Origin: Bacteroidota bacterium | GTDB lineage: Bacteria > Bacteroidota > Ignavibacteria > Kapaibacteriales > Kapaibacteriaceae | DNA length: 64,000 nt | Direction: 5' to 3' | Assembly: GCA_041170435.1 (NCBI GenBank) | Contig: JBEAYU010000056.1 | Span: 12,272 to 76,271 of the forward strand | In this document: positions 1 through 34,268 of the stretch, one piece after another | How the letters are laid out: each line of letters starts with the position of its first letter | How positions within the stretch are numbered: the stretch's first letter is position 1 | Made by a program: the position numbers and the translations under genes | Notes under the pieces: generated by a model | What the model was told of the DNA's origin: nothing | The model's database searches: none | What the model saw: the letters and a program-made list of their open reading frames with translations, nothing else

Positions 1-1186
1 CAATATGGAATGAATTGTTCGTGTTCGGAAGTTCGGTCACCCACCTGCTGGTGGTGACGCGATCTGCTGTGGAGGTGCTGACCTTCTTGCCGAGTGAAAG
101 GAGGGTCATCGACGCTGGGTAGCTGAAGGTCATGTCATAGAGAGCCTTGTGGAAGTATGAATGCGACGGGATCCAGTCCAGCGAGGTTCGGAGGATCGTG
201 TAGTCTTCCACGCGCTCGATCAGATCGCCATGATAGGCAACTCGCATCGTAAAGACCTGCCCCTTGGGCATCGGCTTGGGGAACTTCACAAAGAAGCTCG
301 ACTCATTCTTTGCTCGGAAGAACATGGTCTTCTGGCCGTCGATGAACACCGAATCAACTTTCACAATCGACGTCACCTCCATCTCCAACCAACGCAGGCC
401 ATCTTTGCGCGTCGTCATCTCGATGTCGTCCACCACATGAATATCCAGCGACCGGTCAATGTTGCACGTTGCGGTGTGCCGCTGGGTGCTGACGTCATCA
501 AGGGAGTTCGATCCGTCAGAGTCGACCTCCACTGCTCGTGAATCATCGGGACACATGTTCACTGAGGTCAGCTCTTTCGGGCCATTCTTGGAATCCTTGA
601 TCGTGAGCTTGAATGGCTCCATCTCGTAAGGATTATTGGTAATGTAGCAGTCGATATCACCACCGACGAGGCTCAGATCGTACGCGTTGATGCGCATGTA
701 CGGAACCGTGTCACGGTTGAGCAGGAATCGTGCTACCGCCGGATTGATCAGTTGCGGGTCTTTGTAGAGCATCAGATCCTTGACGGCATTCAGATGCTTG
801 TTCAAAACCAGATTCCCGATCGGTGAGGTTGGAAACTCCTCGATAAGCGAAACGAGTCTCTGATCGCCAAAGACAAACACTGCCGACGTACACTGCTTTG
901 CGTAGGCCGTAGCGCCGGTAAAGCGGCGCAGGTTGACCAATTCAGTTGGGTGATTCGGCGTAAATGACACATTGCAGGTGCCACGAAAGATGGCTGCAAT
1001 TCGACGTCCGTCAACGGGCTCAAGCATGACGATCGACCCACTGTCGAGCGAGATGGAATACAGCCCGTCTTCAAAGAACAGGCCCTCAACCTTTCGATGA
1101 CTCGCCGAGTCGATTCCTAGCGTATCGAGGCGCTTCATCAGAGATTCATATGTAAGATCGGTGCCCTGAGGACTAGGGGTGAGCAT
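1..1186 (-). CDS. hypothetical protein, N-terminal portion only; the gene runs off the left edge of the window
   Basis: Hand translation of the minus strand from an ATG at ~1184-1186 gives an open frame all the way to position 1 (MLTPSPQGTDLTYESLMKRLDTLGIDSASHRKVEGLFFEDGLYSISLDSGSIVMLEPVDGRRIAAIFRGTCNVSF...). There is no in-window stop, so it is missing from the ORF track. The listed ORFs 161..541(+), 711..893(-) and 802..1089(-) are in other frames and do not look like proteins. Confidence 0.45.
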   Translation of the reverse strand, partial: MLTPSPQGTDLTYESLMKRLDTLGIDSASHRKVEGLFFEDGLYSISLDSGSIVMLEPVDGRRIAAIFRGTCNVSFTPNHPTELVNLRRFTGATAYAKQCTSAVFVFGDQRLVSLIEEFPTSPIGNLVLNKHLNAVKDLMLYKDPQLINPAVARFLLNRDTVPYMRINAYDLSLVGGDIDCYITNNPYEMEPFKLTIKDSKNGPKELTSVNMCPDDSRAVEVDSDGSNSLDDVSTQRHTATCNIDRSLDIHVVDDIEMTTRKDGLRWLEMEVTSIVKVDSVFIDGQKTMFFRAKNESSFFVKFPKPMPKGQVFTMRVAYHGDLIERVEDYTILRTSLDWIPSHSYFHKALYDMTFSYPASMTLLSLGKKVSTSTADRVTTSRWVTELPNTNNSFHI

Positions 1187-1289
1187 TACTGCTCGAAGAA
1201 TGCTCGGGAGGGCAAGAAGCAGCCAAACTGTAGTGGAGATACGCATAAAAATCCTTGAAGTGATCGATTACGTATTGGGAGACACGTCG

Positions 1290-2177
1290 ATGGACCGGCC
1301 CGAATCTAATCGAATGGAAGCAACAGACCAAGTGTATCTTTGCCGCATGACAGAGCAGGTACAGGCCCTCGTGGGCAAAGAGTTTCGCTGTCTCGACAAA
1401 GGATTTGTTCGCCTCATCGACGTGATGGGCGATGATTCCGCGATCGTTCAGGCGGCGCGTGTTTCATATGGTTCAGGCACGAAGCAAGTGCACGAAGACA
1501 GGGGGCTCATCAGATATCTGATGCGTCACCTCCACACGACGCCGTTCGAGATGGTGGAGTTCAAGTTCCACGTCAAGCTGCCGATCTTCGTTGCCCGGCA
1601 ATGGATCCGACATCGCACGGCCAACGTCAATGAGTACTCGGGTCGATATTCCGAGATGAAGGACGAGTTCTACCTTCCGGATTCCGACCAAGTCCGCGCA
1701 CAGAGCTCCATGAATAAACAGGGTCGCGCTGATACGGCATTCGATCCAGCCGAAGCCGAGCGCATCCGCTCGGTGATGTCATCAACGCAGCAACACCTGT
1801 ACGACGAGTACCAGCAGCTTCTATCGACCGATCTGGCCCGGGAGATCGCCCGCATCAACCTACCGGTATCGAACTACACGGAGTGGTATTGGAAGATCGA
1901 TCTTCACAACCTCTTCCACTTTCTGAGACTTCGCATCGATCCGCATGCCCAGTATGAGATCCGCGTATACGGAGAGGCAATGGCCGAGATCGCCAAGGCC
2001 GCCGTGCCGCTTGCCTACGAGGCATTTGAGGACTACATCCTGCATGCTCGCAGATTTTCGCGCGCGGAACTCGAGATCATTCGTTCAACGTTGACGTCAT
2101 TGCCCACGGTCGATGAATTGCAGCTCAAGGGGCTGAGCGCTCGTGAAGCGAGGGAGTTTCTCGATAAACTTCAATAG
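1290..2177 (+). CDS. thyX: flavin-dependent thymidylate synthase ThyX
   Basis: ORF 1179..2177 (GTG start) carries the ThyX signature RHRTANVNEYSGRYS and the conserved VRLIDVMGDD..AARVSYG block. The likely real start is the internal ATG at 1290 (MDRPES...), which would leave ~100 bp of divergent promoter space from the upstream minus-strand gene. Confidence 0.85.
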   Translation: MDRPESNRMEATDQVYLCRMTEQVQALVGKEFRCLDKGFVRLIDVMGDDSAIVQAARVSYGSGTKQVHEDRGLIRYLMRHLHTTPFEMVEFKFHVKLPIFVARQWIRHRTANVNEYSGRYSEMKDEFYLPDSDQVRAQSSMNKQGRADTAFDPAEAERIRSVMSSTQQHLYDEYQQLLSTDLAREIARINLPVSNYTEWYWKIDLHNLFHFLRLRIDPHAQYEIRVYGEAMAEIAKAAVPLAYEAFEDYILHARRFSRAELEIIRSTLTSLPTVDELQLKGLSAREAREFLDKLQ

Positions 2178-2180
2178 TGG

Positions 2181-3239
2181 ATGTGCATGACACTTCGGAG
2201 CATCGGTAGGACTTTAGCTGCCATCATCGGCCTTGGTTCGATGGTGCTCTTGTTTATTGCCTGCACGACCGACCCCGTCGAACCAATACCGTCGGAGAGC
2301 CGCGTCCCAGCGCACCTTGCGCCCGTGCCCGTTCCGGGCGATAATCCGTTGACGCCGGCAAAGATCGAACTCGGCCGCCGTCTGTTCTATGATAAGCGCC
2401 TTTCGAGCCAAGGCACGGTGTCCTGCGCCTCATGTCATCGTCAGGAGCTGTCGTTCAGCGACGCTCCAAATCAGGTCAGTCGAGGTGTGTTCAATGCCCT
2501 CGGACAACGCAACGCCCCCTCCCTGCTCAACGTCGCCTACCGCCCGCATTACTTCTGGGACGGCCGTGCTGCAAGCCTTGAAGATCAGGCGATGACAGCC
2601 TTCCTTAGCTCTGTTGAAATGGACGCCGATACGATGGCGGTCTCGGCGCTGCTTCGCACTGAAGCGTATCGTCATTCGTGGAAGGCCGCATTCTCGGATA
2701 CGGCTGTGAGCATGCGCCGTGCGATGATGGCAATTGCGAGTTTTGAGCGGACGATCGTGAGCGCTGACAGTCGGTATGATCGGTATGTTCTTGGCGACCG
2801 GTCGGCTCTCTCCGAGCAGGAGCGACGTGGGATGAATCTTTTCTTCAGTTCGCGTTCGATGTGCGGATCGTGTCATGGGGGACAGGATCTGACGAATGAT
2901 CAGTTCCAGAACATCGGCCTGTTCAACCATTACTTTGATCGGGGCCGATTCAACGTCACGAAAGATCCTGCCGACGATGGTCTATTCAAGACTCCATCGC
3001 TGCGGAATGTTGCGTTGACACCGCCGTACATGGCCTCCGGTGATAGTGATAAGGGGCCCCTGACAACCCTGGAACAGGTTGTGGAGCACTACAACGAGGG
3101 CGGTACGCCATTCTCGAACAAGGACCGGCGTGTAAAGAAGCTTGGCCTCACAAAGTCTGAGGTTGCTGAGCTGGTTGCCTTCATGAAGGCGCTTACCGAC
3201 TCGTCATCTCTTACGCGGCCAGAGTGGTCAGCCCCGTAA
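2181..3239 (+). CDS. ccp: di-haem cytochrome c peroxidase (CCP/MauG family), lipoprotein
   Basis: Two CxxCH haem-binding motifs (CASCH, CGSCH), a lipoprotein-type signal (LLFIAC) and the FxDxRLS/GxVSCASCH architecture typical of bacterial CCP. It starts 4 nt after the thyX stop. Confidence 0.85.
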   Translation: MCMTLRSIGRTLAAIIGLGSMVLLFIACTTDPVEPIPSESRVPAHLAPVPVPGDNPLTPAKIELGRRLFYDKRLSSQGTVSCASCHRQELSFSDAPNQVSRGVFNALGQRNAPSLLNVAYRPHYFWDGRAASLEDQAMTAFLSSVEMDADTMAVSALLRTEAYRHSWKAAFSDTAVSMRRAMMAIASFERTIVSADSRYDRYVLGDRSALSEQERRGMNLFFSSRSMCGSCHGGQDLTNDQFQNIGLFNHYFDRGRFNVTKDPADDGLFKTPSLRNVALTPPYMASGDSDKGPLTTLEQVVEHYNEGGTPFSNKDRRVKKLGLTKSEVAELVAFMKALTDSSSLTRPEWSAP

Positions 3240-3317
3240 TGATTTGATCACGGCAATCGTCCCACTGTTACGTGAGATTGAACATGCCGTAACGTCTGCG
3301 TGACGTACGTCTGACAC

Positions 3318-3345
3318 TTTTGCATCGTTATGAATCGATGCAAAA
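3318..3345. promoter_or_regulatory. perfect 10-nt inverted repeat (TTTTGCATCG-N8-CGATGCAAAA) spanning the start codon of the first operon gene
   Basis: Read directly from the sequence at 3318-3327 and 3336-3345. The ATG at 3330 lies in the 8-nt spacer. Confidence 0.5.
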
Positions 3346-4340
3346 TTCTCTTCATCTGCGGCTCGGTGAACCAGACTACGATGATGGTGCAGATCGCACG
3401 ACATCTTGGTCATCACGATTGTTCCTTTACACCGCACTACGCCGATGGCCTCCTCGAGAAGGCGGCACGGGCAGGACTCCTTGAGTGGACGATCATTGGC
3501 AACCGTCATCGGCAGCGCGCGCTCGCCGTCCTTCAGTCACATGGTTGCAAGCTCGATGAGTATGGTCGCAACGGTGGGTATGACCTTGTGGTCACGTGCA
3601 GTGACCTTGTCGTACAGCGAAACGTCCGCAAACTGCCCGTGATCCTTGTTCAGGAGGGCATGACCGATCCAGAGAACCTGATGTACCGCGCAGTGGTAGC
3701 ACTTGGACTGCCACGGTATCTGGCTTCAACGTCGACATTTGGCCTGTCGCACATGTACCGACATCTCTGCGTGGCTTCAGAAGGATATCGAGAGCACTTC
3801 CGACGCAAGGGAGTCGATGACGCCAAGATTCGTGTCACAGGCATTCCCAACTTCGATGACTGCGCTCGATTCCTGGATGAACCGGTGGCACATCGCGACT
3901 ACGTCTTAGTGGCCACGAGCGATGCGCGCGAAACACTCAAGTATGAGGATCGTCAGCGCACCATTGAGTACGCCCTTTCCATTGCGGCCGGCCGGCAACT
4001 TGTCTTCAAACTTCATCCCAATGAACGGGTCGATAGGGCAAGGCGTGAGATCGAGCGATGGGCGCCCGGGTCGGCGATTTATCATGATTGCGACATCAAC
4101 CCGCTGATCGCTCATTGTGATGCACTGATAACAAAGTTCTCATCCTGTGTCTACGTAGGAATCGCCCTAGGAAAGGAAGTCTACAGTGACTTCTCGGTCG
4201 AGCAGCTCAGGCGTATGTGCCCGATTCAAAACGGGGGCACGTCGGCACAAGCCATTGCCGAGGTCTGCTCTGAGGTGTTGGAGCAAGGACTGAGCAATGA
4301 CGAGGGCCAACAGACATTTCAGTTCCGGAGGGCTATATGA
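3330..4340 (+). CDS. GT-B-like glycosyl/ulosonyl-transferase candidate with an HP motif (KpsS/KpsC-, TagF- or sialyltransferase-like family unresolved)
   Basis: N-terminal Rossmann-like ILFICGS...; conserved FKLHPNER 'HP' motif and a C-terminal ITKFSSCVYVGIALGKEVY block, both typical of HP-motif GT-B enzymes. The first gene of the operon; its stop overlaps the next start (ATGA). Confidence 0.45.
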   Translation: MNRCKILFICGSVNQTTMMVQIARHLGHHDCSFTPHYADGLLEKAARAGLLEWTIIGNRHRQRALAVLQSHGCKLDEYGRNGGYDLVVTCSDLVVQRNVRKLPVILVQEGMTDPENLMYRAVVALGLPRYLASTSTFGLSHMYRHLCVASEGYREHFRRKGVDDAKIRVTGIPNFDDCARFLDEPVAHRDYVLVATSDARETLKYEDRQRTIEYALSIAAGRQLVFKLHPNERVDRARREIERWAPGSAIYHDCDINPLIAHCDALITKFSSCVYVGIALGKEVYSDFSVEQLRRMCPIQNGGTSAQAIAEVCSEVLEQGLSNDEGQQTFQFRRAI

Positions 4341-5128
4341 TACTGAAGCCTCGGGTGGTGATCATCTGTCAGGCTCGCACAGGGTCGAGCCGCCTTCCAG
4401 GAAAGGTCCTTCTGCCAGTAGCAGGGGAGCCCCTTTTGATCCGATTTCTTGAGCGTGTTTCGATGTCGAAGCATGCAGGACACATGGTTGTGGCAACAAC
4501 GCACAGGCCGCAGGATGACGAGATCGTTCGCCTCTGCTCGGGACGAGGCTATTCGGTGTTCCGCGGAGATGAGAACGATTTGCTCGACCGGCATTTCCGT
4601 GCAGCGCAAATGATGGAGGCCGATGTTGTGGTCAAGATTCCCACTGACTGCCCCCTGATCGACCCACGGGTGATCGACATGGTCATCGACGCATTTCTCA
4701 GACGGTATCCGCACGTCGACTACGTCAGTAATCTGCATCCAGGTACCTGGCCCGACGGAAACGACGTCGAGGTCATGTCGTTCCTTGCTCTGCAACGTGC
4801 CTGGGTAAGTGCTACCAAGCCACATCAGCGTGAGCACACTACGCCGTGGCTGTGGGAAGACAACCTGAATACACGATGCATGAATGTTGAGCGGCCGGAT
4901 GGACGGAAACTTGACGACCGCCATCGGTGGACGATCGACCAGCCCGAGGACTACTTACTGATCCGAGCGGTGTTCGACGCACTGTATTGGAATGATCCGC
5001 GCTTTCGCTGTGAGGATGTGCTGTCGTTTCTGGAGAATCACCCGGAGATCGATCTGATCAACGAGCACCTGCGGGGTCAGAGCTGGTATGTGACGCATTT
5101 GCAAACACAGAAGAGGATCGCCTCATGA
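4337..5128 (+). CDS. acylneuraminate/CMP-ulosonate cytidylyltransferase family protein (NeuA/PseF/SpsF/KdsB-like)
   Basis: N-terminal VVIICQARTGSSRLPGKVLLPVAGEPLL matches the CTP_transf_3 nucleotide-binding motif (compare KdsB IIPARYASTRLPGKPL). Its length (263 aa) fits this family. Confidence 0.75.
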   Translation: MILKPRVVIICQARTGSSRLPGKVLLPVAGEPLLIRFLERVSMSKHAGHMVVATTHRPQDDEIVRLCSGRGYSVFRGDENDLLDRHFRAAQMMEADVVVKIPTDCPLIDPRVIDMVIDAFLRRYPHVDYVSNLHPGTWPDGNDVEVMSFLALQRAWVSATKPHQREHTTPWLWEDNLNTRCMNVERPDGRKLDDRHRWTIDQPEDYLLIRAVFDALYWNDPRFRCEDVLSFLENHPEIDLINEHLRGQSWYVTHLQTQKRIAS

Positions 5129-5982
5129 CGCATGAGCAACAGGAAGAATTGGAACAAGCTGCCCTGCGGGTGCGTCAGCACATTGTTCGGATGTCCACCA
5201 ATGGCGGCTGCTTCATCGGAGCGTCTTTGTCGTGCGCCGACATCTTGGTGTATCTCTACTGGCGCTACCTCAATATCAGTCCCATGACGGTGAACGCAGA
5301 GGACCGCGACGTACTGCTGCTGTCGAAGGGGCACGATGTACCGGCATTGTATGGAGTACTTGCAGAGAGGGGATTCATCAGCAAGACGCGGCTTGGGCAC
5401 CATCTCTCGGTTGAGGATAGCATCTACTGGCATCCGAACCGCTCCGTCAGCGGAGTGGAGTTCCACTCAGGCTCGCTCGGGCACCTGCTCAGCGTGGGCA
5501 TTGGGATGGCACTCGATGCGCGTATGAAGGGGCTGCCCACGCGAGTGGTCGTGATCCTTGGCGATGGCGAGCTCAACGAAGGAAGCATCTGGGAGGCATG
5601 CCTTGTTGCATCGGCTCTGAGCATCGACAATCTCGTGGCGATCGTCGACCGAAATCATTTTCAAGCGAACATTCGCACCGAAGATCTCATTCCGCTCGAG
5701 CCCCTTTCCGAAAAGTTCAGAGCCTTCGGTTGGGATGCCATGCACGTCAACGGCCACGACATGCGATCTCTCGACGAGTGCTTTGGCTCTCTGCAGCTCA
5801 ATACCGGACGTCCCACGGTTGTCATCGCCGACACACGAAGAGGTAAGGGGCTTCCCAGCATCGAGGAGCAGGCCGACCGTTGGTTCTGCAACTTCAGTGC
5901 CGATGAAGCCGATGCGCTCCTTGATGAGCTCAACGGAAATGCACGCGCCACCATCACCTCAGAAAGGCTTATCGTACGATGA
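5125..5982 (+). CDS. transketolase, N-terminal (ThDP-binding) subunit
   Basis: GDGELNEGSIWEA ThDP-binding motif; its length (285 aa) fits split transketolases; 4-nt overlap with both neighbouring genes. Confidence 0.85.
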   Translation: MTHEQQEELEQAALRVRQHIVRMSTNGGCFIGASLSCADILVYLYWRYLNISPMTVNAEDRDVLLLSKGHDVPALYGVLAERGFISKTRLGHHLSVEDSIYWHPNRSVSGVEFHSGSLGHLLSVGIGMALDARMKGLPTRVVVILGDGELNEGSIWEACLVASALSIDNLVAIVDRNHFQANIRTEDLIPLEPLSEKFRAFGWDAMHVNGHDMRSLDECFGSLQLNTGRPTVVIADTRRGKGLPSIEEQADRWFCNFSADEADALLDELNGNARATITSERLIVR

Positions 5983-6947
5983 ATGCCTACGAAACGCTCC
6001 TCCTCGATGCAGCCGCACGCGACGAGCGTCTGGTTGTGATCACGGCCGAGAACCGCGGCCACATGCGGACCGTTCCTCCGATGCTTGGAGATCGATTCAT
6101 AGACGTTGGGATCGCCGAACAGACGATGATCGGAATGGCTGCCGGCATGGCGGTGCGCGGTCGCGTTGTTGTGACGCATGCTCTGGCAGCATTTCTGACG
6201 ATGCGTGCCTTCGAGTTTATTCGTGACGACGTGGCGATCAGCAATGCCGCGGTGATCATGGTAGGCATGGTGCCCGGAGTACTCAGCGATGGGAATGGAC
6301 CAACGCATCAGGCCATCGAGGATGTGTCGATCATGCGCGGCCTGCCAAACGTCAACGTCTTCTGTCCATGCGACGAGCGTGACTTCATCGATGGCATGCG
6401 CGTACTGCTTGACTCACACGCACCATGGTACGTGCGCTACATCAGCACTCCGGATCTGCTGATCGATCGCGTAGCCTTTGAACCCGGCCGAGCAATGATC
6501 ATCCGTGGTGCTTCCCTGCATCGTCCGAACGTGACGATCCTTACCTACGGATTTCTCACCCGTCAGTGCATTGAAGCTGCGGATGAATTGGGTCGTGACG
6601 ACATTCATGTCCGCGTGGTACACATGCGGACCCTTAAACCGGTGGACGCTGCGACCATCCTCCATGCAGCCGCGACCAGCGAATTGGTCGTGACCGTGGA
6701 AGATCATCTCTTGACGGGTGGCTTGGCAACGATCGTTGCCGAGACTCTCATGGCACACGGGAAAGGGGCTCCCGTGCTCACGCTTGGCTTCCCAACGTGG
6801 TTTCGACCGGGGCGACTCAACGAGGTCCTTGAGTATGAACGCCTGAGCTCGCAGGCGATCGCACAGCGCATCCGCCAACGACTGGCCGATATCGTGCATC
6901 CGTCGACCGAGCCCCCTACACAACATCACGAGGTATCCCATGCATGA
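5979..6947 (+). CDS. transketolase, C-terminal (pyrimidine-binding/C-terminal domain) subunit
   Basis: DVGIAEQTMIGMAAGMA... and GPTHQAIEDVSIMRGLPN motifs of the transketolase Pyr and C-terminal domains. Forms a pair with the upstream N-terminal subunit. Confidence 0.85.
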   Translation: MNAYETLLLDAAARDERLVVITAENRGHMRTVPPMLGDRFIDVGIAEQTMIGMAAGMAVRGRVVVTHALAAFLTMRAFEFIRDDVAISNAAVIMVGMVPGVLSDGNGPTHQAIEDVSIMRGLPNVNVFCPCDERDFIDGMRVLLDSHAPWYVRYISTPDLLIDRVAFEPGRAMIIRGASLHRPNVTILTYGFLTRQCIEAADELGRDDIHVRVVHMRTLKPVDAATILHAAATSELVVTVEDHLLTGGLATIVAETLMAHGKGAPVLTLGFPTWFRPGRLNEVLEYERLSSQAIAQRIRQRLADIVHPSTEPPTQHHEVSHA

Positions 6948-8271
6948 ACCAACGTATCCGCCCATCCAGCGCTCCACGGAGTTACTCCAACGTGCCGAGC
7001 GCATCATTCCCGCGACCACGCAAACGCTCGCGAAAGGTCCCGGACAGCATGTGCGTGGCGTAGCGCCTGTCTATGCCCGTCGCGGTAAGGGGGCATACCT
7101 GTGGGACGTCGATGATAACAGATACCTTGACTACTCGATGGCCATTGGACCGCTGATCCTGGGCTACGCAGATCCGGGAGTGAACCGCGCCATCGAGGCT
7201 CAGCTGCATGATGGAATCACATTCTCGCTCATGCATCCTCTGGAAGTGGAGGTTGCGGAGCTGATCCATGGGATCATCCCAAACGCCGAGAACGTGCGCT
7301 ATTCGAAGACGGGGTGTGACGTCACGTCAGCCGCCGTGCGCTTGGCACGTGCCTATACCGGCCGCTCCACCGTGCTCTGCTGTGGATACCATGGCTGGCA
7401 CGACTGGTACATCGCCACGACAGATCGCGCCATGGGTATCCCTCATGCCGTGCGTGACCTGACATATACGTTCAGCTACAACAGCATTCAGAGTGTGTAC
7501 AATGCTATCGATGCCGATACGGCAGCGATCATTCTTGAGCCGATGACCTTCGATGAACCGAACGATGGATTCTTGCAAGAGTTGCGTGAACTGTGTGATC
7601 AGCGTGGCATCGTTCTAATCTTCGATGAGATGTGGACCGGCTTTCGGATCTCTCCCGGCGGTGCACAAATGCGATTCGGTGTCAAGGCAGACCTTGCATG
7701 CTTCTCAAAGGCCGTGGCCAATGGTATGCCGCTGTCTGTTCTGACGGGGCGTGCCGACATCATGCGCCTGCTTGAGCATGATGTATTCTTTTTTACGACC
7801 TTTGGCGGGGAAGCTCTATCACTTGCCGCTGCCAAGGCCACACTTCATCGCCTCGTTGACGGCGAAGTCCTACAGCGCATCGAGCTCATCGGCGATGAAC
7901 TCCGAGAAGGTATCCGGGGAATTCTTGCCGATAATTACATGTCGTATGTCAGCTGCAAGGGGCTTGGTGCACGTACGATGCTGGCGTTCTCGGACACGGC
8001 GGGTGACCCGTTGCTGATGAGGTCGTTCATCCAGCAAGAACTCCTCAAGAACGGGATTCTTTGGAACGGCTTCCATAACCTGAGCGCCTCGCACACGCCA
8101 AGCGATATCCAGTATACTCTCGATATCTACTCAGAGGTCCTTCCCATGCTTCACGAGCACATTCGCATGGGGACACTCGCGATGTCGCTTCGGGGCCGCC
8201 CCGTCGAGCCGGTGTTCCGCAAGACTGGGGGCTTTAATACCAAACCTCGCGTTGAGGTGCACGAGCAATGA
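6940..8271 (+). CDS. class III (glutamate-1-semialdehyde 2,1-aminomutase-like) PLP aminotransferase
   Basis: HemL-family signature: GxxFS...YxKTGCDV..., DEMWTGFRIS and SKAVANGMPLS (PLP-lysine region). 443 aa. Confidence 0.8.
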   Translation: MHEPTYPPIQRSTELLQRAERIIPATTQTLAKGPGQHVRGVAPVYARRGKGAYLWDVDDNRYLDYSMAIGPLILGYADPGVNRAIEAQLHDGITFSLMHPLEVEVAELIHGIIPNAENVRYSKTGCDVTSAAVRLARAYTGRSTVLCCGYHGWHDWYIATTDRAMGIPHAVRDLTYTFSYNSIQSVYNAIDADTAAIILEPMTFDEPNDGFLQELRELCDQRGIVLIFDEMWTGFRISPGGAQMRFGVKADLACFSKAVANGMPLSVLTGRADIMRLLEHDVFFFTTFGGEALSLAAAKATLHRLVDGEVLQRIELIGDELREGIRGILADNYMSYVSCKGLGARTMLAFSDTAGDPLLMRSFIQQELLKNGILWNGFHNLSASHTPSDIQYTLDIYSEVLPMLHEHIRMGTLAMSLRGRPVEPVFRKTGGFNTKPRVEVHEQ

Positions 8272-9074
8272 ATGATATGTTTTCACTCTCGGGTAGGGTG
8301 GCGATCGTCACCGGCGCTGGCGGGCTCCTTGGACGTGAGCATTGCGTGGCTTTGGCCGATGCAGGGGCAACCGTGTATGCGTGTGACATCAATGCGAATG
8401 CAGCATGGGCGGTTGCCTCCGAGATCGGTTCACATCACGTTGGCGTTGCCCTTGATGTCACCGATTCAGAGAGTATCGTCGAGCTTCGGCAGCGCATCCT
8501 ATCTGACACCGGACGCATTGACGTGCTCATCAACAACGCAGCAATGAACGACATGGTCGAAGCACCACTCTCCACCGGCGCTGTCTCGGCCTTCGAGAAC
8601 TATCCGCTAGACCTGTTTCGACGAGTTCTGGATGTGAACGTCACGGGTGTGTTTCTCACCAGCCAGATCATCGGTTCACACATGGCAAGCGTCGGACGCG
8701 GATCGATCATCAATGTCGCATCTACCTACGGAGTGGTCGCACCCGATCAGCGCCTCTACAGACGTTCCGACGGAACGCAGACATTCTTTAAGAGTGCCGC
8801 CTATCCTGCTTCGAAGGGGGCGGTCGTGATGCTCACGAAGTTCCTGGCAACCTATTGGGCCAGACAGGGTGTTCGGGCCAATGCATTGTCACCCGGAGGG
8901 GTGGCTAACGGACAGGACGAGCATTTTCAACATCTGTATGCCGAGCGTACTCCCATGGGTCGGATGGCAGCACCCTCAGACTACAGGTCGGCACTCGTTT
9001 TCCTGGCGTCTGACGCATCGGCATACATGACGGGACAGAACCTCATCGTCGATGGGGGCTGGACCGCATGGTAA
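8268..9074 (+). CDS. short-chain dehydrogenase/reductase (SDR) family oxidoreductase
   Basis: TGAGGLLG Rossmann motif, NNAA and the catalytic YPASK motif. Confidence 0.85.
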   Translation: MNDMFSLSGRVAIVTGAGGLLGREHCVALADAGATVYACDINANAAWAVASEIGSHHVGVALDVTDSESIVELRQRILSDTGRIDVLINNAAMNDMVEAPLSTGAVSAFENYPLDLFRRVLDVNVTGVFLTSQIIGSHMASVGRGSIINVASTYGVVAPDQRLYRRSDGTQTFFKSAAYPASKGAVVMLTKFLATYWARQGVRANALSPGGVANGQDEHFQHLYAERTPMGRMAAPSDYRSALVFLASDASAYMTGQNLIVDGGWTAW

Positions 9075-9141
9075 TTGTTTCAACGATCATTCACGCGCAT
9101 GCCGCAGCAGCACACCTTCTTCAATCTTCGCAGAGGTCAAC

Positions 9142-10038
9142 ATGAACAGCACGTCACAACCGGTACCGGCCATTGGAGCCGATGCGCCAGTGTACATCAT
9201 CGCCGAGGTCGGTATCAATCACAATGGCTCGCTTGACATTGCAACCGAAATGATCCAGGGGGCTGCCCGAGCCGGCGCTTCATGTGTGAAGTTCCAGAAG
9301 CGAACTCCCGAACTGTGCGTTCCGCGTGATCAGTGGCACATTGAGCGCGACACGCCATGGGGTCGAATGACCTACATCGACTATCGCCACAAGGTGGAAT
9401 TCACCGAGTCTGATTATCGCGTGATCGATGCATTGTGCCGTGAACTTGGAATTGATTGGACCGTTTCCTGCTGGGATGAAGAAGCGGTGGCCTTCATGGA
9501 GGCAAACTTCGACGTTTCCTTCTACAAGGCTGCGTCGGCATCACTGACCGATCTGAAGCTGCTTCGCGCCATGGCCTCAACCGGCAAGCCTCTGATGATA
9601 TCGACCGGCATGTCAACGATCGACGAGATTGAAGCTGCCGTGTCTGCCCTGAACGGACATCGGCTGATGATCGCCCATGCAACGTCGGCCTATCCGTGCT
9701 CGACGGATGAGCTCAATCTGCGCATGATCCACACGCTTGCACAGCGGTTCCCGGAGAGCACTATTGGCTACAGTGGTCACGAGGTTGGTTTGGCCACCAC
9801 GTACGCAGCCGTTGCTCTCGGCGCCCGATTTGTTGAACGCCACATCACGCTCGATCGGGCAATGTGGGGAACGGATCAGGCCGCAAGTGTTGAGATCGCG
9901 GGTCTTGAGCGCATGGTCCGCGACATCCGCGAGATCGAACGCTCACTCGGTGATGGCGTCAAGCGCTTGTATGATAGTGAGCTCGGTGTTCGCGCTAAGC
10001 TGCGCCGAGTTCCCTCGTCCATCGCAGGAGAAGCCTAA
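9142..10038 (+). CDS. N-acetylneuraminate synthase (NeuB/PseI/LegI) family protein, TIM-barrel only, with no C-terminal SAF domain
   Basis: ORF 9052..10038; likely start at the internal ATG 9142 (MNSTSQ...). IIAEVGINHNGSLD is the hallmark N-terminus of NeuB-family PEP-condensing synthases. The protein ends at ~298 aa, before where the SAF/antifreeze-like domain would sit. Confidence 0.75.
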   Translation: MNSTSQPVPAIGADAPVYIIAEVGINHNGSLDIATEMIQGAARAGASCVKFQKRTPELCVPRDQWHIERDTPWGRMTYIDYRHKVEFTESDYRVIDALCRELGIDWTVSCWDEEAVAFMEANFDVSFYKAASASLTDLKLLRAMASTGKPLMISTGMSTIDEIEAAVSALNGHRLMIAHATSAYPCSTDELNLRMIHTLAQRFPESTIGYSGHEVGLATTYAAVALGARFVERHITLDRAMWGTDQAASVEIAGLERMVRDIREIERSLGDGVKRLYDSELGVRAKLRRVPSSIAGEA

Positions 10039-10041
10039 GCG

Positions 10042-10806
10042 ATGGAGCTAACGCTTGCCACCGTCTGCGCGATCATTGTGATCCTCTCGGGGGCTCTGCT
10101 CATTCTGTTGGAGCGACTGTTCCCGTACAATCGCGGCCAACGTCTGTTTCGTCAAGGGTTCATCACGGATCTCGGTCTGTATGCCATCGTTCAGAGCTAC
10201 CTCCTTGGATTGGTAATCTTTGGCTTCATTGCATGGATCGACCAACAGACCGGAGTGAGCCGCTGGACGTTCTTTCGATCTCAGAACCTGTGGGTGCAAA
10301 TGCTGGTTGTGCTCGTTGTCCACGACTTCTACATCTACTGGTTCCACCGATGGCAGCACAAGAGCCCCCTACTGTGGAGGATCCATGAGGCCCATCACTC
10401 GACGAAAGATGTTGATTGGCTCAGTGGATCGCGGTCGCATAGCCTGGAGATCTTGGTCAACCAGACCGTGGAGTTTCTTCCGATCGTTCTGCTGGCATCA
10501 GCCGAGATCGCGGTCATGAAAGGAGCCGTTGATGCGATCTGGGGCATGTACATCCACTCAAACATCGATGTGCGCTCGGGTTGGATGCAGCGTCTGATCA
10601 ACGGACCGGAAATGCACCGGTGGCATCATGCTGATGACCACCGGTCACACAATCGCAACTTTTCTACGAAGCTCGCCGTCTGGGACTGGCTATTCGGAAC
10701 GGCCTATCTACCGGCTGACGAAAAGCCGGGAGCGTATGGCTTGGACGATGAGTTTCCGAAAGGGTACATTGGACAGCATCTCCATGCGTTCCGACGTCGA
10801 CGCTGA
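10042..10806 (+). CDS. fatty acid hydroxylase / sterol desaturase superfamily integral membrane protein
   Basis: Hydrophobic N-terminal half plus histidine boxes HDFYIYWFHRWQH, HEAHHS and HRWHHADDH (di-iron membrane hydroxylase family, like OlsE/ERG3/CrtZ). Confidence 0.75.
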   Translation: MELTLATVCAIIVILSGALLILLERLFPYNRGQRLFRQGFITDLGLYAIVQSYLLGLVIFGFIAWIDQQTGVSRWTFFRSQNLWVQMLVVLVVHDFYIYWFHRWQHKSPLLWRIHEAHHSTKDVDWLSGSRSHSLEILVNQTVEFLPIVLLASAEIAVMKGAVDAIWGMYIHSNIDVRSGWMQRLINGPEMHRWHHADDHRSHNRNFSTKLAVWDWLFGTAYLPADEKPGAYGLDDEFPKGYIGQHLHAFRRRR

Positions 10807-11575
10807 TCTCCGGATCGTCGAGCTCGACGATGTCGAACAAATCGTCGAAGCTTCCGAACGGGAGCGAATCGATGCCCATCTGGCAGTTGCGCTCGATGTT
10901 GATACCATTCTCGTATCCGACCTTCATCTCGGTTCGGACGTGGCAAGGTCACGGGCTCTAGTCATGATGCTCAAGACACACTCATACAAAAGGCTGGTCC
11001 TAAACGGAGACGTGTTTGACGATTTGAACTTCAAGCGTTTGACGAAGGACGACTGGAAGGTTCTGTCACTTCTTCGTCGTCTGTCGAATCCACGTCGAGG
11101 TATCGAAGTGGTCTGGATCGTTGGAAACCACGACGGGGGAGTGGCGGAGATCTTGACCCATTTACTGGGAGTACCCGTGCATGAGGAGATGGTCTTCACG
11201 GTTGCCGGCAAGAGGCATCTGGCCATCCACGGTCATCAGTTCGATCGCTGGATCACGAAGCATGTGACGATCACAGCGATTGCCTCGGCCTTGTATCTGC
11301 TCTTGCAGCGCCTCGATCCTAAGCATCGAGTGAGTCGGTGGGTGAAGAGAACAAGCAAGAAGTGGCTGAGACTCAGCGATAAGATCGCTCATGACGCGGT
11401 GTCACACGGACGTCGAAATCACAGTGTTCAGTTTGTCCACTGCGGACATACGCACATGCCTACGATCAAGCAGGTTGATGACATGGTATACGTCAATTCT
11501 GGTTGCTGGACTGATAAGCCATCAACATACGTCGTGGTCGATCATCAGGGAGATGTTCAGCTGCATTCCATGTAG
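10784..11575 (+). CDS. LpxH-like calcineurin-type metallophosphoesterase (UDP-2,3-diacylglucosamine hydrolase family)
   Basis: ORF 10628..11575 overlaps the upstream gene; likely start at 10784 (MRSDVD...). Motifs VSDLHLG, NGDVFDD, VGNHDG, HGHQFD and CGHTH match LpxH/MPE metal-binding blocks. Confidence 0.65.
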   Translation: MRSDVDADLRIVELDDVEQIVEASERERIDAHLAVALDVDTILVSDLHLGSDVARSRALVMMLKTHSYKRLVLNGDVFDDLNFKRLTKDDWKVLSLLRRLSNPRRGIEVVWIVGNHDGGVAEILTHLLGVPVHEEMVFTVAGKRHLAIHGHQFDRWITKHVTITAIASALYLLLQRLDPKHRVSRWVKRTSKKWLRLSDKIAHDAVSHGRRNHSVQFVHCGHTHMPTIKQVDDMVYVNSGCWTDKPSTYVVVDHQGDVQLHSM

Positions 11576-11605: not shown

Positions 11606-12331
11606 ATGCATCATGACCATTCAACTCGCCCCGTTCTTTTTGATGTCCGACACGTCACGAAATCCTATCGAATGGGTGAGCTCGATGTTGTTGCACTGAA
11701 CGACGTCTCGTTGATGGTCCGTCAAAGCGAGCTCCTTGTGATACTCGGGGCATCGGGCAGCGGTAAGTCGACGCTTCTGAACATCCTCGGAGGCTTGGAC
11801 GTCCCAACGACGGGCACCGTGACGTATCGTGATCAGGATCTTTCGCACGCCACAGACGCGAAGCTGACGGAGTTCCGACGCCGTTCCGTGGGTTTTGTGT
11901 TCCAGTTCTACAACATCATACCGAGTCTGACGGCTCTTGAGAACGTGCGACTCGTGACGGATCTTGTCGACGAGCCTATGGATCCGCGTCAGGCACTGGA
12001 GTTGGTGGGCCTGGCCGATCGAGCATCGCACTTTCCTTCGCAAATGTCAGGGGGCGAACAGCAGCGGGTTGCCATCGCACGTGCCATCGCGAAGCGCCCC
12101 GACGTGCTCTTGTGCGATGAACCCACCGGCGCTTTGGATTTCGAGACCGGAGTCAAGGTCCTCGAAGTGATCGACATGGTTCATCGTGAGCTGGATGCGA
12201 CCGTGGCACTGATCACGCACAACGCGAGCATTGCCGACATGGCCGATCGCGTCCTTCGCATGCGGAGTGGGTCGATCGTCGAGGAGTTCGCCCCGGCGGT
12301 TCGAAAGCAGCCGCGAGAGCTGTCGTGGTGA
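11606..12331 (+). CDS. ABC transporter ATP-binding protein (MacB/LolD/DevA-type)
   Basis: Walker [13 protein letters not shown] signature [14 protein letters not shown], Walker [12 protein letters not shown]. Confidence 0.9.
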
Positions 12332-33771: not shown

Positions 33772-33826
33772 AACGGTTGTGTGTTGGCAGTCGGCAAAAC
33801 TATGGATGATCGATCAATCGTAGTAC

Positions 33827-34268
33827 GGAGATCCCTGTAAGCCGAATTCTGTCTTCCTCGCGACGCGAGGGAGGCAACCATTTATCTGGGATCGATGTCG
33901 CCACCGACCTCAAGCAACCTACCCGAGCGCTGTTCGCCCCCTTACGAGGACGATGAACGACGAACAGCCGATCGCCGCCCGAAGGCAGCCGGCGCTCTGC
34001 TTGGTCTTGCTCCGTGCGGGGTTTGCCGAGCCAGACGGTCACCCGTCTGCCGGTGGGCTCTTACCCCACCATTTCACCCTTACCTGTGCCTGTGCGTGCA
34101 CGGGCCATCGGCGGTATCTTTCTGTTGCACTTTCCGTTGCCTTGGACGGCACCCCAAGGGGCATCGCACTTGACACCTTCCCGTTAGGAAGCGCACTGTT
34201 CTGTGGAGTTCGGACTTTCCTCCGCAACAGCCTGTGAGGGCGGAAGCGGTGGTTGCCCGGGATCCCCG
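33827..34268 (-). ncRNA. rnpB: RNase P RNA (bacterial type A)
   Basis: The minus-strand transcript contains GGAGGAAAGUCCGAACUCCACAG (P4 5' strand), GGGUAAGAGCCCACC (the GGUAAGAGCGCACC universal block) and a 3' ...ACAGAAUUCGGCUUACAGG (P4 3' strand). A GGGAUCCC/GGGAUCUCC P1 pairing defines the ends. End coordinates are approximate (±5 nt). Confidence 0.85.

Follow-up and report, generated by a model that had tools for sequence, protein, structure and literature searches.

A widely conserved gene cassette that most likely builds and CMP-activates a sialic-acid-related amino sugar acid by way of a degenerate transketolase-like enzyme

In the Kdo8N pathway of Shewanella, the dehydrogenase KdnB and the aminotransferase KdnA act on Kdo, replacing a hydroxyl of this 2-keto-3-deoxy sugar acid by an amine ahead of its activation with CMP. 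The pathway further comprises a KdsC-type phosphatase and a KdsB-like cytidylyltransferase. We know of no ThDP enzyme in it, nor of its occurrence outside this one genus. The KDN pathway of Bacteroides thetaiotaomicron joins a NeuB-family KDN-9-P synthase to a KdsC-family KDN-9-P phosphatase (NCBIfam model NF058599), and in the canonical NeuC/NeuB/NeuA, Leg and Pse pathways a NeuB-family enzyme carries out the condensation with PEP and a CTP_transf_3 enzyme then activates the product with CMP. A module of a transketolase-like enzyme, an aminotransferase and a short-chain dehydrogenase (SDR) has been proven experimentally for anisomycin in Streptomyces (AniP/AniQ/AniN), where the aminotransferase supplies the 2-oxoacid donor and later puts an amino group back onto the acyloin that the transketolase-like enzyme forms, after which the SDR oxidises an alcohol (PMC11387542). 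In siAniP, loss of R358, H461 and R520 goes with the use of a non-phosphorylated aldehyde (PMC11387542). With hydroxypyruvate as ketol donor, the split-gene transketolase of Carboxydothermus hydrogenoformans (6YAK/6YAJ) accepts non-phosphorylated aldehydes in vitro (PMC7661550).

We analysed a 64,000-nucleotide stretch of DNA from a Bacteroidota bacterium (the window), in which an earlier note had singled out four genes at 5125-9074: a TktN-like protein, a TktC-like protein, a class III aminotransferase and an SDR, flanked by a CTP_transf_3 cytidylyltransferase and a NeuB-family synthase. All four are real, with open reading frames at exactly these positions on the + strand, but the conserved unit is larger, running from ~3330 to ~11575 of the window (about 8 kb), and consists of the following.

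3330..4340, +, 336-aa GT-B-fold protein ("unk336"), the first gene of the cassette
4337..5128, +, CTP_transf_3 cytidylyltransferase (Pfam PF02348, E 1.8e-22)
5125..5982, +, TktN-like ThDP (PP-domain) subunit of a non-canonical transketolase family (Pfam Transketolase_N, E 3.7e-27)
5979..6947, +, TktC-like (Pyr + C-terminal domain) subunit (Pfam Transket_pyr 8e-28, Transketolase_C 6e-24)
6940..8271, +, class III (GSAM-like) PLP aminotransferase (Pfam Aminotran_3, E 3.6e-49)
8268..9074, +, classical short-chain dehydrogenase with TGxxxGxG and YxxxK (Pfam adh_short_C2, E 1.8e-45)
9052..10038, +, NeuB-family PEP-condensing synthase (Pfam NeuB, E 1.3e-73)
10042..10806, +, membrane di-iron FA_hydroxylase family protein, OlsE-like (Pfam FA_hydroxylase, 1.5e-30)
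10628..11575, probable start near 10784, +, calcineurin-like metallophosphoesterase (Pfam Metallophos_2)

Among the four flagged genes and their two flanks, successive genes overlap by 4-8 nt at ATGA-type junctions of overlapping stop and start codons (the cytidylyltransferase stop overlaps the TktN start, for example), so that they look like one translationally coupled operon. We fetched 82 loci via the aminotransferase and 80 further metagenome loci via the TktN-like protein, and the same set recurred, in a fixed order, in over 140 of these loci, spread over eight phyla or more: GT-B protein, cytidylyltransferase, (TktN-TktC), aminotransferase, SDR, (KdsC-type phosphatase), NeuB, (OlsE-like hydroxylase). 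With identical genes in identical order in both sets, the arrangement is far beyond chance, and the flagged genes are part of a widely conserved cassette, a description of which our literature search did not find in any paper. Its most likely function is to build and CMP-activate a sialic-acid-related amino sugar acid, via a degenerate transketolase-like enzyme. The unit as first drawn had missed the GT-B protein, the hydroxylase and the KdsC-type phosphatase or metallophosphoesterase, and its description as a glycan locus was an assumption, since ordinary glycosyltransferases are absent; we also found no literature behind its starting point, according to which branched ketoses are thought to be products of split transketolases from glycan loci.

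The best solved relative of the Tkt pair is the C. hydrogenoformans enzyme, which has the same two polypeptides (PP, then Pyr + C): its N chain, 6YAK, is the top PDB match of the TktN-like subunit (1.3e-52), and 6YAJ, followed by DXS structures, that of the TktC-like subunit. Identity of the TktN-like protein to E. coli TktA is 26%. The ThDP/Mg motif GDG..N and E411 are kept in 39/39 members of the pair, as are the ketol-donor residues H66, H100, G114 and H473 (D155 and N185 are likewise kept in all 39 TktN-like members). In contrast, the residues that hold the sugar phosphate in transketolase, contacting both the hydroxyls and the phosphate of the acceptor (H26, H261, D469, R358, H461 and R520; PMC7661550, PMC11387542), are lost in all 39. 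H26 and H261 are both Phe in every one of the 39 (an invariant GGCF replaces the GH(P) motif that holds H26, and WF stands for WH), D469 is Asn in all 39, H461 is V, F or I, R520 is not conserved, and R358 is absent from the TktC-like polypeptide because the C subunit starts at that position. The C. hydrogenoformans enzyme, by comparison, keeps H26, H261, H461, D469 and R520, all five of which are replaced here. The TktC-like protein carries a family-specific motif, TAENRxxxR, the conserved ENRxxxR portion of which might replace the canonical phosphate site. The pair scores under every NCBIfam transketolase cut-off and is found almost only within the cassette (65 of the 80 metagenome TktN copies lie directly 3' of its cytidylyltransferase). 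Thus, as the earlier note had proposed, it is not an ordinary split pentose-phosphate transketolase.

The aminotransferase, the most conserved gene of the cassette, has HemL (glutamate-1-semialdehyde 2,1-aminomutase) as its closest structural family, with which it shares the class III fold and the PLP lysine, but identity to E. coli HemL is 32%, and the scores fall below the cut-offs (TIGR00713 hemL, 235 bits vs 527; NF004856, 362 vs 486). Invariant TQTLAKGPGQ and CCGYHGWHDWY sequences stand in place of the GSAM "GGVNSPVR" motif and gating loop; the N-terminal substrate motif differs, the gating-loop region is shorter, and the genes around it are sugar-acid genes rather than haem genes. The profile matches after GSAM include D-phenylglycine aminotransferase, aminopentol aminotransferase, the mycosubtilin aminotransferase domain and GenB C-6' aminotransferases. 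The claim that this enzyme is not HemL is therefore upheld. We considered that a housekeeping split transketolase and a HemL paralogue might adjoin sialic-acid genes by chance, as the top PDB matches, which are genuine split transketolase and GSAM structures, would allow. This is highly improbable and was rejected, being contradicted by the replacement of six canonical transketolase residues in 39/39 members, the failure to reach any transketolase or HemL equivalog cut-off at 32% HemL identity, synteny that is fixed across at least eight phyla, and the existence of a natural TktC-aminotransferase fusion (P0075/L001). Together with a stand-alone TktN-TktC-aminotransferase locus (L157), this fusion indicates consecutive steps, which backs the proposed coupling of transketolase and aminotransferase.

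The same three-enzyme logic that we propose for the cassette is that of AniP/AniQ/AniN, a proven precedent for the keto-acid/aldehyde chemistry, distinct from DegT-type NDP-sugar chemistry, that had been suggested for these genes (PMC11387542). AniP is likewise a transketolase-family ThDP enzyme that has lost sugar-phosphate residues (R358/S385/H461/R520) and D469 and is found beside an aminotransferase and a short-chain dehydrogenase. However, AniP has its ~580 aa in one polypeptide, packs its domains as DXS does and uses aromatic keto acids, whereas the cassette enzyme is split, and it lacks the whole histidine motif, whereas the cassette enzyme keeps H66, H100 and H473 and has Phe at 26 and 261. 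The end products differ as well: a pyrrolidine antibiotic for Ani and, by prediction, a PEP-condensed, CMP-activated sugar acid for the cassette. The likeness lies in residue loss and module logic; against TktN, the 581-aa "putative transketolase" 8K03 reaches no better than E 7e-7.

Of the 52 classifiable cassettes, 15 lack the pair, and zero alignment columns of the five core enzymes discriminate cassettes with the pair from those without it. We concluded that the pair is an accessory, or is provided in trans, and is not what defines the product, contrary to the role that it had been given. In three loci, a second, fused transketolase-like lineage (c37) fills the same slot.

The flanking genes point to a PEP-condensed, CMP-activated product. 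The NeuB-family protein aligns with SpsE, PseI and NeuB structures and keeps the E..H metal and catalytic motifs. It consists of the TIM barrel only, without the C-terminal SAF/antifreeze-like domain, and misses the NeuB_NnaB (238 vs 400) and PseI (191 vs 340) cut-offs, in both respects differing from the canonical nonulosonic acid enzymes. Its true start is probably ATG 9139, as homologues are ~296 aa long and similarity begins at residue 40 of the open reading frame. The cytidylyltransferase, which is predicted to make the CMP-activated sugar acid, is closest among solved structures to 6OEW, a "cytidylyltransferase" (142 bits, vs at most 48 for KdsB structures), and has weak N-terminal KdsB matches only, all below cut-off. 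The cassette phosphatase of other loci is of the KdsC family (TIGR01670, 154 bits vs a cut-off of 107) and scores just below the cut-off of the KDN-9-P phosphatase model (171 vs 180). Its occurrence with a NeuB-family synthase repeats the pairing seen in the KDN pathway, and a C0-type HAD phosphatase in this place implies that the aldose substrate is phosphorylated, but the KDN pathway has neither the amination nor the ThDP step proposed here. NeuB, a KdsC-family phosphatase and a CTP_transf_3 enzyme form the standard trio for ulosonic acid synthesis and activation. No KdsC-like gene was found anywhere in the window, where the metallophosphoesterase, which has weak LpxH and YfcE matches, is a candidate replacement; homologous or analogous metallophosphoesterases lie beside the cassette in L002, L003, L008, L012, L027, L032, L036, L045, L046, L057, L065 and L073.

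The GT-B protein is a candidate for either a CMP-sugar-dependent transferase or a very divergent NDP-sugar 2-epimerase/hydrolase like NeuC/LegG, which it resembles in fold. If the latter, the cassette could be a canonical nonulosonic acid pathway in disguise, with the aldose coming from an NDP-hexosamine, NeuB and the cytidylyltransferase working as in sialic, legionaminic and pseudaminic acid synthesis, the SDR and aminotransferase replacing the 4,6-dehydratase and DegT enzyme, and the transferase encoded elsewhere. Weak Epimerase_2 matches in 30 of 32 GT-B family members, and an alignment with WecB of segments similar to the "HRRE" and "HxNP" nucleotide-binding motifs of epimerases, are in keeping with this. 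We nevertheless regard it as unlikely, because Epimerase_2 scores 20.3 against a gathering score of 30.6, the hhalign probability is 5.9%, and the GT-B sequences, as read by eye, lack the "G(T/S)R..(D/E)" motif at the N terminus. Furthermore, the SDR is classical rather than an extended NDP-sugar dehydratase, the aminotransferase is class III rather than DegT, and the KdsC-type phosphatase would have no role. The cassette further differs from the canonical pathways in that most lineages have no N-acetyltransferase and that its precursor enzymes come from families whose substrates are carbonyl compounds, free or phosphorylated, rather than NDP-sugars. In several phyla, the gene immediately upstream of the GT-B gene encodes an HpnL/LPG_synthase_TM membrane protein or a GT2, which also counts against an epimerase and suggests a membrane acceptor.

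Our best explanation, to which we give a probability of roughly 0.4 and every step of which we infer, is that the cassette synthesises and CMP-activates an amino-deoxy 2-ulosonic (sialic-acid-like) sugar for the cell envelope by a transketolase/transaminase/dehydrogenase route; the route and the chemical structure of its product are predicted from the genes. The TktN/TktC-like ThDP enzyme would take a C2 ketol unit, probably from hydroxypyruvate decarboxylation, and join it to a non-canonical aldehyde, bound otherwise than a standard sugar-phosphate, to give a 1,3-dihydroxy-2-ketone. The GSAM-like aminotransferase would aminate C2 (and may, like AniQ, also make the keto-acid donor from an amino acid), and the SDR would oxidise the C1 alcohol to yield a 2-amino-aldose, which the SAF-less NeuB would condense with PEP to a 5-amino-3,5-dideoxy-2-ulosonate. 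Phosphate removal by the KdsC-type phosphatase (here probably the metallophosphoesterase) and formation of the CMP-sugar by the CTP_transf_3 enzyme would follow, whereupon the GT-B protein would move the sugar onto a membrane acceptor and the OlsE-like hydroxylase would modify acceptor or product. In cassettes without the Tkt pair, the ketose would presumably come from central metabolism or from a Tkt copy encoded elsewhere. The genes, in the order Tkt-aminotransferase-SDR-(phosphatase)-NeuB, follow the steps of this route, and the absence of columns separating the two kinds of cassette is expected if the pair only supplies a precursor. Against this early amination, the pair is lacking in those 15 of 52 cassettes, and H26 and H261 are the acid/base pair with which true transketolases cleave and ligate ketoses, so that with both lost, carboligation may be impaired or work differently. 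In addition, the phosphorylated NeuB substrate implied by a KdsC-type phosphatase is at odds with the lost phosphate site of the transketolase-like enzyme.

The SDR, which directly follows the aminotransferase in 75 of the 82 loci, is predicted from its relatives to oxidise a sugar or polyol alcohol. The families and structures closest to it are gluconate 5-dehydrogenase, galactitol, sorbitol and glucose-1 dehydrogenases, KduD-like enzymes and HpsO (all below equivalog cut-offs). Such relatives oxidise secondary alcohols of polyols and sugar acids, which tells against early amination and makes a late-stage amination like that of Kdo8N, although on balance doubtful, a serious rival that fits this evidence at least equally well. 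NeuB would condense PEP with a common aldose phosphate, the KdsC-type phosphatase would free the ulosonate, the SDR would oxidise a terminal or penultimate hydroxyl, and amination and CMP activation would follow. The transketolase-like enzyme would be accessory, acting on the oxidised, non-phosphorylated tail or taking away the keto acid that transamination leaves behind (hydroxypyruvate in the case of serine, for instance) and so pulling the equilibrium. The dehydrogenase-aminotransferase logic is established for Shewanella (KdnB/KdnA), although there KdnB is a metal-dependent alcohol dehydrogenase and the synthase is KdsA, whereas the cassette, which spans many phyla, has an SDR and NeuB. 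A phosphorylated NeuB substrate from central metabolism accounts for the KdsC homologue with no extra assumptions, loss of the phosphate-binding residues fits action after dephosphorylation, and the pair would be dispensable, as it is in 15 of the 52 cassettes. However, the gene order is opposite to this route, and the TktC-aminotransferase fusion calls for the two steps to be directly linked in metabolism, as they are only if the pair scavenges the keto acid. Moreover, if the pair lengthened or shortened the sugar, products with and without it would differ, yet no alignment column of the aminotransferase, cytidylyltransferase, NeuB or GT-B protein tells the two kinds of cassette apart. Both early and late amination require the SDR as an oxidase, where the earlier note had ketoreduction.

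The hydroxylase, which scores 118 against a cut-off of 475 on the NCBIfam OlsE model, follows NeuB in 50 of the 82 loci and is a cassette member in Bacteroidota/Ignavibacteriota/Chlorobiota lineages. An OlsF equivalog (731 bits vs a cut-off of 620) comes after it in five loci, and in a Chloroflexota cassette its slot is taken by a GNAT-domain protein, a metallophosphoesterase and a PhyH-family dioxygenase.

The four ORFs singled out in the earlier note, a split transketolase followed by a class III aminotransferase and an SDR, were confirmed with precise coordinates on the forward strand. They are listed here with the genes that flank them.

4337-5128, CTP_transf_3 cytidylyltransferase, the upstream flank
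5125-5982, + strand, Transketolase_N protein, 285 aa (Pfam)
5979-6947, + strand, Transket_pyr plus Transketolase_C protein, 322 aa (Pfam)
6940-8271, + strand, class III aminotransferase, 443 aa
8268-9074, + strand, classical SDR, 268 aa
9052-10038, NeuB-family synthase, the downstream flank

Adjacent genes in this list overlap by a few bases and are therefore probably translated as one unit; the conserved cassette to which they belong runs from about 3330 to about 11575. As called mechanically, the NeuB and metallophosphoesterase ORFs begin with N-terminal extensions (9052-9138 and 10628-10783, respectively) that run into the preceding genes and match nothing in the homologues; the true starts are likely to be the ATG at 9139 for NeuB and an ATG at about 10784 for the metallophosphoesterase. 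The note had placed these genes in a glycan locus; the genes themselves stand, but that setting was an assumption, since standard glycosyltransferases are absent. The first gene of the cassette encodes a 336-aa GT-B protein, here called unk336 (3330-4340). Its ATG at 3330 is surrounded by a perfect 10-bp inverted repeat at 3318-3345 (TTTTGCATCG ttatgaat CGATGCAAAA), which lies within the sole sizeable intergenic gap (3240-3329) upstream of the operon and could be an operator or a translational hairpin. A promoter and terminator scan found fewer sigma-70-like sites than in shuffled sequences.

The cassette is widespread. A scan of one genome per species returned at least 598 matching stretches, and the best 80 of these came from Ignavibacteriota, Bacteroidota, Chlorobiota, Acidobacteriota, Myxococcota, Nitrospirota, Chloroflexota, and a few Proteobacteria, with cultured Hymenobacter, Mucilaginibacter, and Melioribacter among them. 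The closest homologues of the aminotransferase are in Candidatus Kapabacteria and Bacteroidota MAGs, and two of the homologous loci that we fetched (given here as L numbers) are Chlorobiota-lineage MAGs with the cassette (L029 and L069). By tblastn and ORF clustering, a single gene order recurs: unk336, cytidylyltransferase, (TktN-TktC), aminotransferase, SDR, (176-aa HAD protein), NeuB, (FA_hydroxylase), (121-aa SMR/EamA-like membrane protein). Presence and absence were counted from tblastn; the ORF caller is crude for high-GC loci, and many of the sampled loci are truncated contigs. We found no description of the cassette in the literature on transketolases, NeuB/nonulosonic acids, GSA aminotransferases, or O-antigen, and existing annotations of its genes read only “hypothetical,” “transketolase subunit,” or “GSA aminomutase.”

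The surroundings of the cassette vary. An HpnL/LPG_synthase_TM membrane protein or a GT2 lies directly upstream of unk336 in some loci, a GDSL lipase is an occasional neighbour, and in a Chloroflexota cassette NeuB is followed by genes for a GNAT-domain protein, a metallophosphoesterase, and a PhyH-family dioxygenase. In the window, the same-strand genes immediately upstream of the cassette (1179-3239) encode the thymidylate synthase ThyX, which is ~75 aa longer at its N terminus than the model, and a di-haem peroxidase of the MauG/MbnH type; in the 82 loci fetched via the aminotransferase, no linkage of ThyX or MauG-like genes to the cassette was found, bar ThyX in L073. A MacB/LolCDE-like exporter (ABC ATPase, 789-aa FtsX-type permease, and HlyD-type membrane-fusion protein; 11606-15851) follows the cassette co-directionally. 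We rejected it as a cassette member because it is unconserved, with only weak ABC matches in 6 of the 82 loci.

To place the transketolase-like (TK-like) pair, whose best solved relatives are both chains of the Carboxydothermus hydrogenoformans split transketolase, we built an alignment of 39 cassette pairs that also included TktA and Dxs of E. coli and the enzyme of C. hydrogenoformans (E. coli numbering is used throughout). All 39 pairs keep the ThDP/Mg2+ motif GDG..N (D155, G156, and N185) and the cofactor-activating E411, and all 39 also keep the ketol-donor residues H66, H100, G114, and H473, which bind the donor in transketolase (PMC7661550). As the H100 position is reported to be Phe in DXS (PMC7661550), the retention of this histidine makes the donor site transketolase-like, not DXS-like, on this criterion. 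H26, inside an invariant GGCF motif, is replaced by Phe and D469 by Asn in 39 of 39 pairs, and H261 is also Phe, where HMMER pairs WF with the WH found in the human and C. hydrogenoformans enzymes. In transketolase, H26, H100, H261, D469, and H473 hydrogen-bond sugar hydroxyls, and the H26/H261 pair and D469 act in sugar-hydroxyl binding, in acid/base chemistry, and as a stereo-selector (PMC11387542). The substrate phosphate is bound by R358, S385, H461, and R520 (PMC11387542). In the 39-pair alignment H461 has become V, F, or I, the R520 position is unconserved, and R358 has no counterpart, as the C subunit starts there; loss of the phosphate site was scored on these three residues, the alignment at S385 being unreliable. 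With the cofactor and donor residues kept and the phosphate and hydroxyl residues lost, the enzyme is very probably still able to form a ThDP-bound ketol and is predicted, from the same residues, to hold no sugar phosphate in the manner of transketolase.

Equivalog scores are a weaker test than the residues because each subunit was scanned alone against full-length models. The N and C subunits scored 228 and 180 bits, respectively, against NF004559 (627 positions; cut-off, 488), each matching about half of the model, 113 and 57 bits against the transketolase model TIGR00232 (cut-off, 682), and 36 and 148 bits against the DXS model TIGR00204 (cut-off, 466). The N part is 26% identical to TktA and the C part 31% identical to Dxs, and the arginine with which DXS binds the phosphate of GAP (R478, equivalent to the R520 position of transketolase) is unconserved in the family. 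A scan of metagenomes for the family's motifs yielded 80 loci, and in 65 of these the gene lies directly after the cassette's cytidylyltransferase; most of the remaining 15 are contigs too short to judge, and a few are real exceptions. The pair stands by itself in L102, and L144 and L156 lack a cytidylyltransferase upstream of it. L157 (10311-13563) has TktN-TktC and the aminotransferase but no other cassette gene nearby, and between TktC and the aminotransferase lie a dienelactone-hydrolase gene, a tandem of three Uma2-family genes (putative restriction endonuclease-like), and a fifth ORF. The earlier note had named an ordinary pentose-phosphate transketolase, split by chance, as the reading that would refute its own; the residue losses in 39 of 39 pairs and the position of 65 of the 80 metagenome copies after the cytidylyltransferase refute that reading.

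Three loci of Bacteroidota/Polyangiales have, in place of the split pair, a TK-like protein of ~650-680 aa that is fused and full length (L023, 7993-9981; L033, 7960-10014; L075, 175-2118, minus strand). It lies between the cytidylyltransferase and the aminotransferase in L023 and L033 and upstream on the opposite strand in L075. This protein is 27-38% identical to the split pair, retains H26 and H261, and has lost D469 and R520; it looks like a second transketolase lineage independently recruited to the same job. We also considered a DXS-like reading of H26F/H261F, with pyruvate as a hydroxyethyl donor, and rejected it because H66, H100, G114, and H473 are all kept and the fused lineage in the same slot retains H26/H261.

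Within class III, the aminotransferase falls in the GSAM-like branch. Its identity to E. coli HemL is 32%, and it stays below the cut-off of every GSAM model (TIGR00713 hemL, 235 bits versus 527; NF000818, 246 versus 398; NF004856, 362 versus 486). The GGVNSPVR segment of GSAM, which we take to be a substrate motif, is replaced by an invariant TQTLAKGPGQ, and the region of the long loop, presumably the active-site gating loop of HemL, is shorter by a 9-residue gap than in the E. coli enzyme and carries an invariant CCGYHGWHDWY. No second HemL-like gene was found within the 64-kb window, and the gene sits among sugar-acid genes in all loci. We concluded from the low identity, the missed hemL cut-offs, and the altered motifs and gating loop that the enzyme is not a genuine HemL, in agreement with the note. 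After GSAM, its profile matches are an aminopentol aminotransferase, the mycosubtilin aminotransferase domain, GenB C-6′ aminotransferases, and D-phenylglycine aminotransferase, enzymes whose substrates are secondary metabolites and sugars with a ketone or aldehyde group; the second-best NCBIfam match is the guanitoxin GntE transaminase model. L001 (10001-12250) encodes a natural 749-aa TktC-aminotransferase fusion, P0075, an indication that the two enzymes act in consecutive or coupled reactions. Upstream of the cytidylyltransferase, this contig also carries an LPG_synthase_TM gene, of which no homologue was found in the window.

The barrel of the NeuB protein (PF03102, 248 bits) can be aligned to the structures of SpsE, PseI, and NeuB, and the ExH and GxSxH segments are part of the match. 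The protein lacks the C-terminal SAF (antifreeze-like) domain, which contacts N-acetylhexosamine, its homologues are only ~296 aa long, and its scores are 238 versus a cut-off of 400 for TIGR03569 and 191 versus 340 for TIGR03586. The 176-aa HAD protein, present in 46 related loci, is a KdsC-family phosphatase with a DxDGVLTD motif (TIGR01670, 154 bits versus 107; KDN-9-P phosphatase model, 171 versus a cut-off of 180). No KdsC homologue was found within the window; there, and in several other loci, a metallophosphoesterase is attached in its place and may substitute for it. The cytidylyltransferase matches PF02348 (80.7 bits versus 22.6), falls far below the cut-offs of all KdsB models, which match residues 6-123 only, and is closest to the uncharacterised solved structure 6OEW and distant from KdsB. 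The nearest relatives of the SDR are gluconate 5-dehydrogenase, galactitol and sorbitol dehydrogenases, KduD-like enzymes, and HpsO; oxidoreduction of sugar or polyol alcohols is its most likely role. The cassette consists of the usual trio for production and activation of a 2-keto-3-deoxy sugar acid (NeuB, KdsC-type phosphatase, and CMP-transferase), an amine-installing pair of aminotransferase and SDR, and an optional, dedicated, re-specified ThDP enzyme. Some defining features of the transketolase, DXS, HemL, NeuB/PseI, and KdsB equivalog families, for KdsB the equivalog score, were tested and do not hold for these proteins, which we therefore do not count as members. That the cassette is simply a set of ordinary genes is scarcely credible, given the re-specified residues and the missed equivalog cut-offs.

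The assignment of unk336 rested on fold comparison, the sole informative route. Every named homologue is “hypothetical,” sub-threshold sequence evidence exists for both Epimerase_2 and Glyphos_transf, a profile search against PDB sequences gave a marginal TagF-like match, and hhalign against WecB was weak, whereas the AF2 model (pLDDT, 87.7) has a GT-B fold. The protein could be a transferase for the CMP-sugar or a very divergent NeuC-like enzyme. Its membrane-protein neighbours and the KdsC phosphatase, which has no role in a NeuC-type scheme, incline us toward a transferase, and a NeuC-type reading of the cassette appears improbable.

Not every cassette carries the TktN-TktC pair. Among 52 classifiable cassettes, 37 have it and 15, all from Ignavibacteria-type lineages, do not, the cytidylyltransferase abutting the aminotransferase in the latter. 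No alignment column separates the two groups in the aminotransferase, SDR, NeuB, unk336, or cytidylyltransferase, and the aminotransferases of cassettes lacking the pair are 68% similar to those of pair-containing Ignavibacteria cassettes, which are 64% similar among themselves. The cassette thus probably yields one product whether or not it includes the pair. The pair is accessory: it supplies something that is otherwise obtainable or is encoded elsewhere, the latter being possible as shown by L102 and L157.

The closest proven analogue of the ThDP enzyme-aminotransferase-SDR triad is the AniP/AniQ/AniN module of anisomycin biosynthesis (PMC11387542). There, AniQ deaminates an amino acid to a 2-oxoacid donor; AniP, a TK-like enzyme that also lacks the phosphate site and D469, joins this donor to non-phosphorylated glyceraldehyde; and AniQ re-aminates the resulting acyloin before the SDR AniN carries out a multistep pyrrolidine-forming reaction (PMC11387542). 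As in that module, a transketolase-family enzyme without a phosphate site is adjacent to an aminotransferase and an SDR in the window and in the other loci with the pair. The end of the cassette resembles a sialic/Kdo-type pathway, and its start resembles either the Ani module or Kdo8N tailoring; we read the whole as CMP-ulosonic acid biosynthesis with a new precursor or tailoring module. We infer the substrates, the order of steps, and the product from sequence, structure prediction, and synteny.

In the route that we prefer, the TK-like enzyme would join a C2 ketol, probably from hydroxypyruvate, to an unusual aldehyde to give a 1,3-dihydroxy-2-ketone, which the aminotransferase would convert to a 2-amino-1,3-diol. 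Oxidation at C1 by the SDR would yield a 2-amino-aldose, and NeuB would condense this with PEP to a 5-amino-3,5-dideoxy-2-ulosonate, a neuraminic-acid-type skeleton, to be dephosphorylated, CMP-activated, and transferred. In cassettes lacking the pair, central metabolism or a copy of the pair at another site would provide the ketose. Our preference follows from the Ani analogy and from the retained donor residues for a hydroxylated C2 unit, and we put the probability of this route at roughly 0.4. The TktC-aminotransferase fusion, the gene order (which is colinear with the steps), and the Ani precedent are better explained by it than by a Kdo8N-like sequence, in which NeuB starts from an ordinary aldose phosphate, the acid is released by the phosphatase, and oxidation of one of its hydroxyls by the SDR prepares it for amination by the aminotransferase, leaving the TK-like enzyme an accessory task such as removing hydroxypyruvate formed from a serine amino donor. 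The relatives of the SDR and the presence of the phosphatase are better accounted for by the Kdo8N-like sequence, which we nonetheless regard as somewhat unlikely. The probability left over falls to other routes. As a main model we rejected decarboxylation of the NeuB product, a 2-oxoacid, by the TK-like enzyme to an aldehyde for amination, because it would destroy the ulosonate needed by the cytidylyltransferase and is unworkable in cassettes without the pair.

The cassette's OlsE-like hydroxylase, the FA_hydroxylase-family protein, has the bifunctional ornithine-lipid synthase OlsF beside it in five loci (L012, 10868-12637; L027; L046; L052; L063; NCBIfam equivalog, 731 bits versus a 620 cut-off), which hints that the hydroxylase, and perhaps the sugar too, is related to ornithine lipids. 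The aminoglycosphingolipid of Chlorobium limicola reportedly contains neuraminic acid. A more speculative extension, which we consider rather unlikely, is a natural transketolase-transaminase cascade in which a small aldehyde, a C2 ketol from a serine or hydroxypyruvate donor, and PEP would give a new sialic-acid-like amino sugar, entirely bypassing hexosamine and NDP-sugar metabolism, with the CMP-sugar placed on a membrane lipid, not a polysaccharide. Candidate acceptors would be a hydroxylated ornithine lipid, to which the neighbouring OlsE-like and OlsF genes point, or one resembling the aminoglycosphingolipid of Chlorobium (Jensen et al. 1991, cited in PMC11762602). Phosphonate (AEP-type), sphingoid-base, capnine, and hopanoid pathways were rejected because none of their signature genes, including PEP mutase and serine palmitoyltransferase, was found in any locus.

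Sialic-acid-like sugars (Neu, Leg, Pse, Kdo, and KDN) shape bacterial surfaces, phage and immune recognition, and biofilm matrices, and to our knowledge all routes to them start from hexosamine, NDP-sugars, or ordinary aldose phosphates. Should our preferred route be correct, the cassette would make a new sugar by a new precursor logic, ThDP carboligation and transamination feeding NeuB, and would be a natural counterpart of the engineered transketolase/transaminase cascades that make chiral amino-diols. Its naturally re-specified transketolase active site (H26F, H261F, D469N, and loss of the phosphate site) would then be of interest for biocatalysis. It would also follow that thousands of genes have been systematically mis-annotated as pentose-phosphate transketolase and HemL, an error that distorts metabolic reconstructions of metagenome-assembled genomes and could be corrected. 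The lipid-linked cascade, if true, would add a component of the cell envelope that is widespread in Bacteroidota, Ignavibacteriota, Chlorobiota, and several other phyla. The cassette occurs in hundreds of species-level genomes from at least eight phyla, and Hymenobacter, Mucilaginibacter, and Melioribacter are culturable.

Elsewhere in the window, four genes encode large, probably secreted proteins, which fit an origin in the Bacteroidota group (Kapabacteria).

21318-23780, Ig-repeat protein, 820 aa, probably secreted
41928-46652, 1574-aa protein with only a C-terminal FlgD_ig-like domain, otherwise unannotated
56232-60509, 1425-aa subtilase with FG-GAP repeats
62037-63380, BNR/sortilin-like protein with a T9SS Por_Secre_tail

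The sole Rfam match in the window is a class A bacterial RNase P RNA on the minus strand at 33822-34268, a full-length match of 254 bits.
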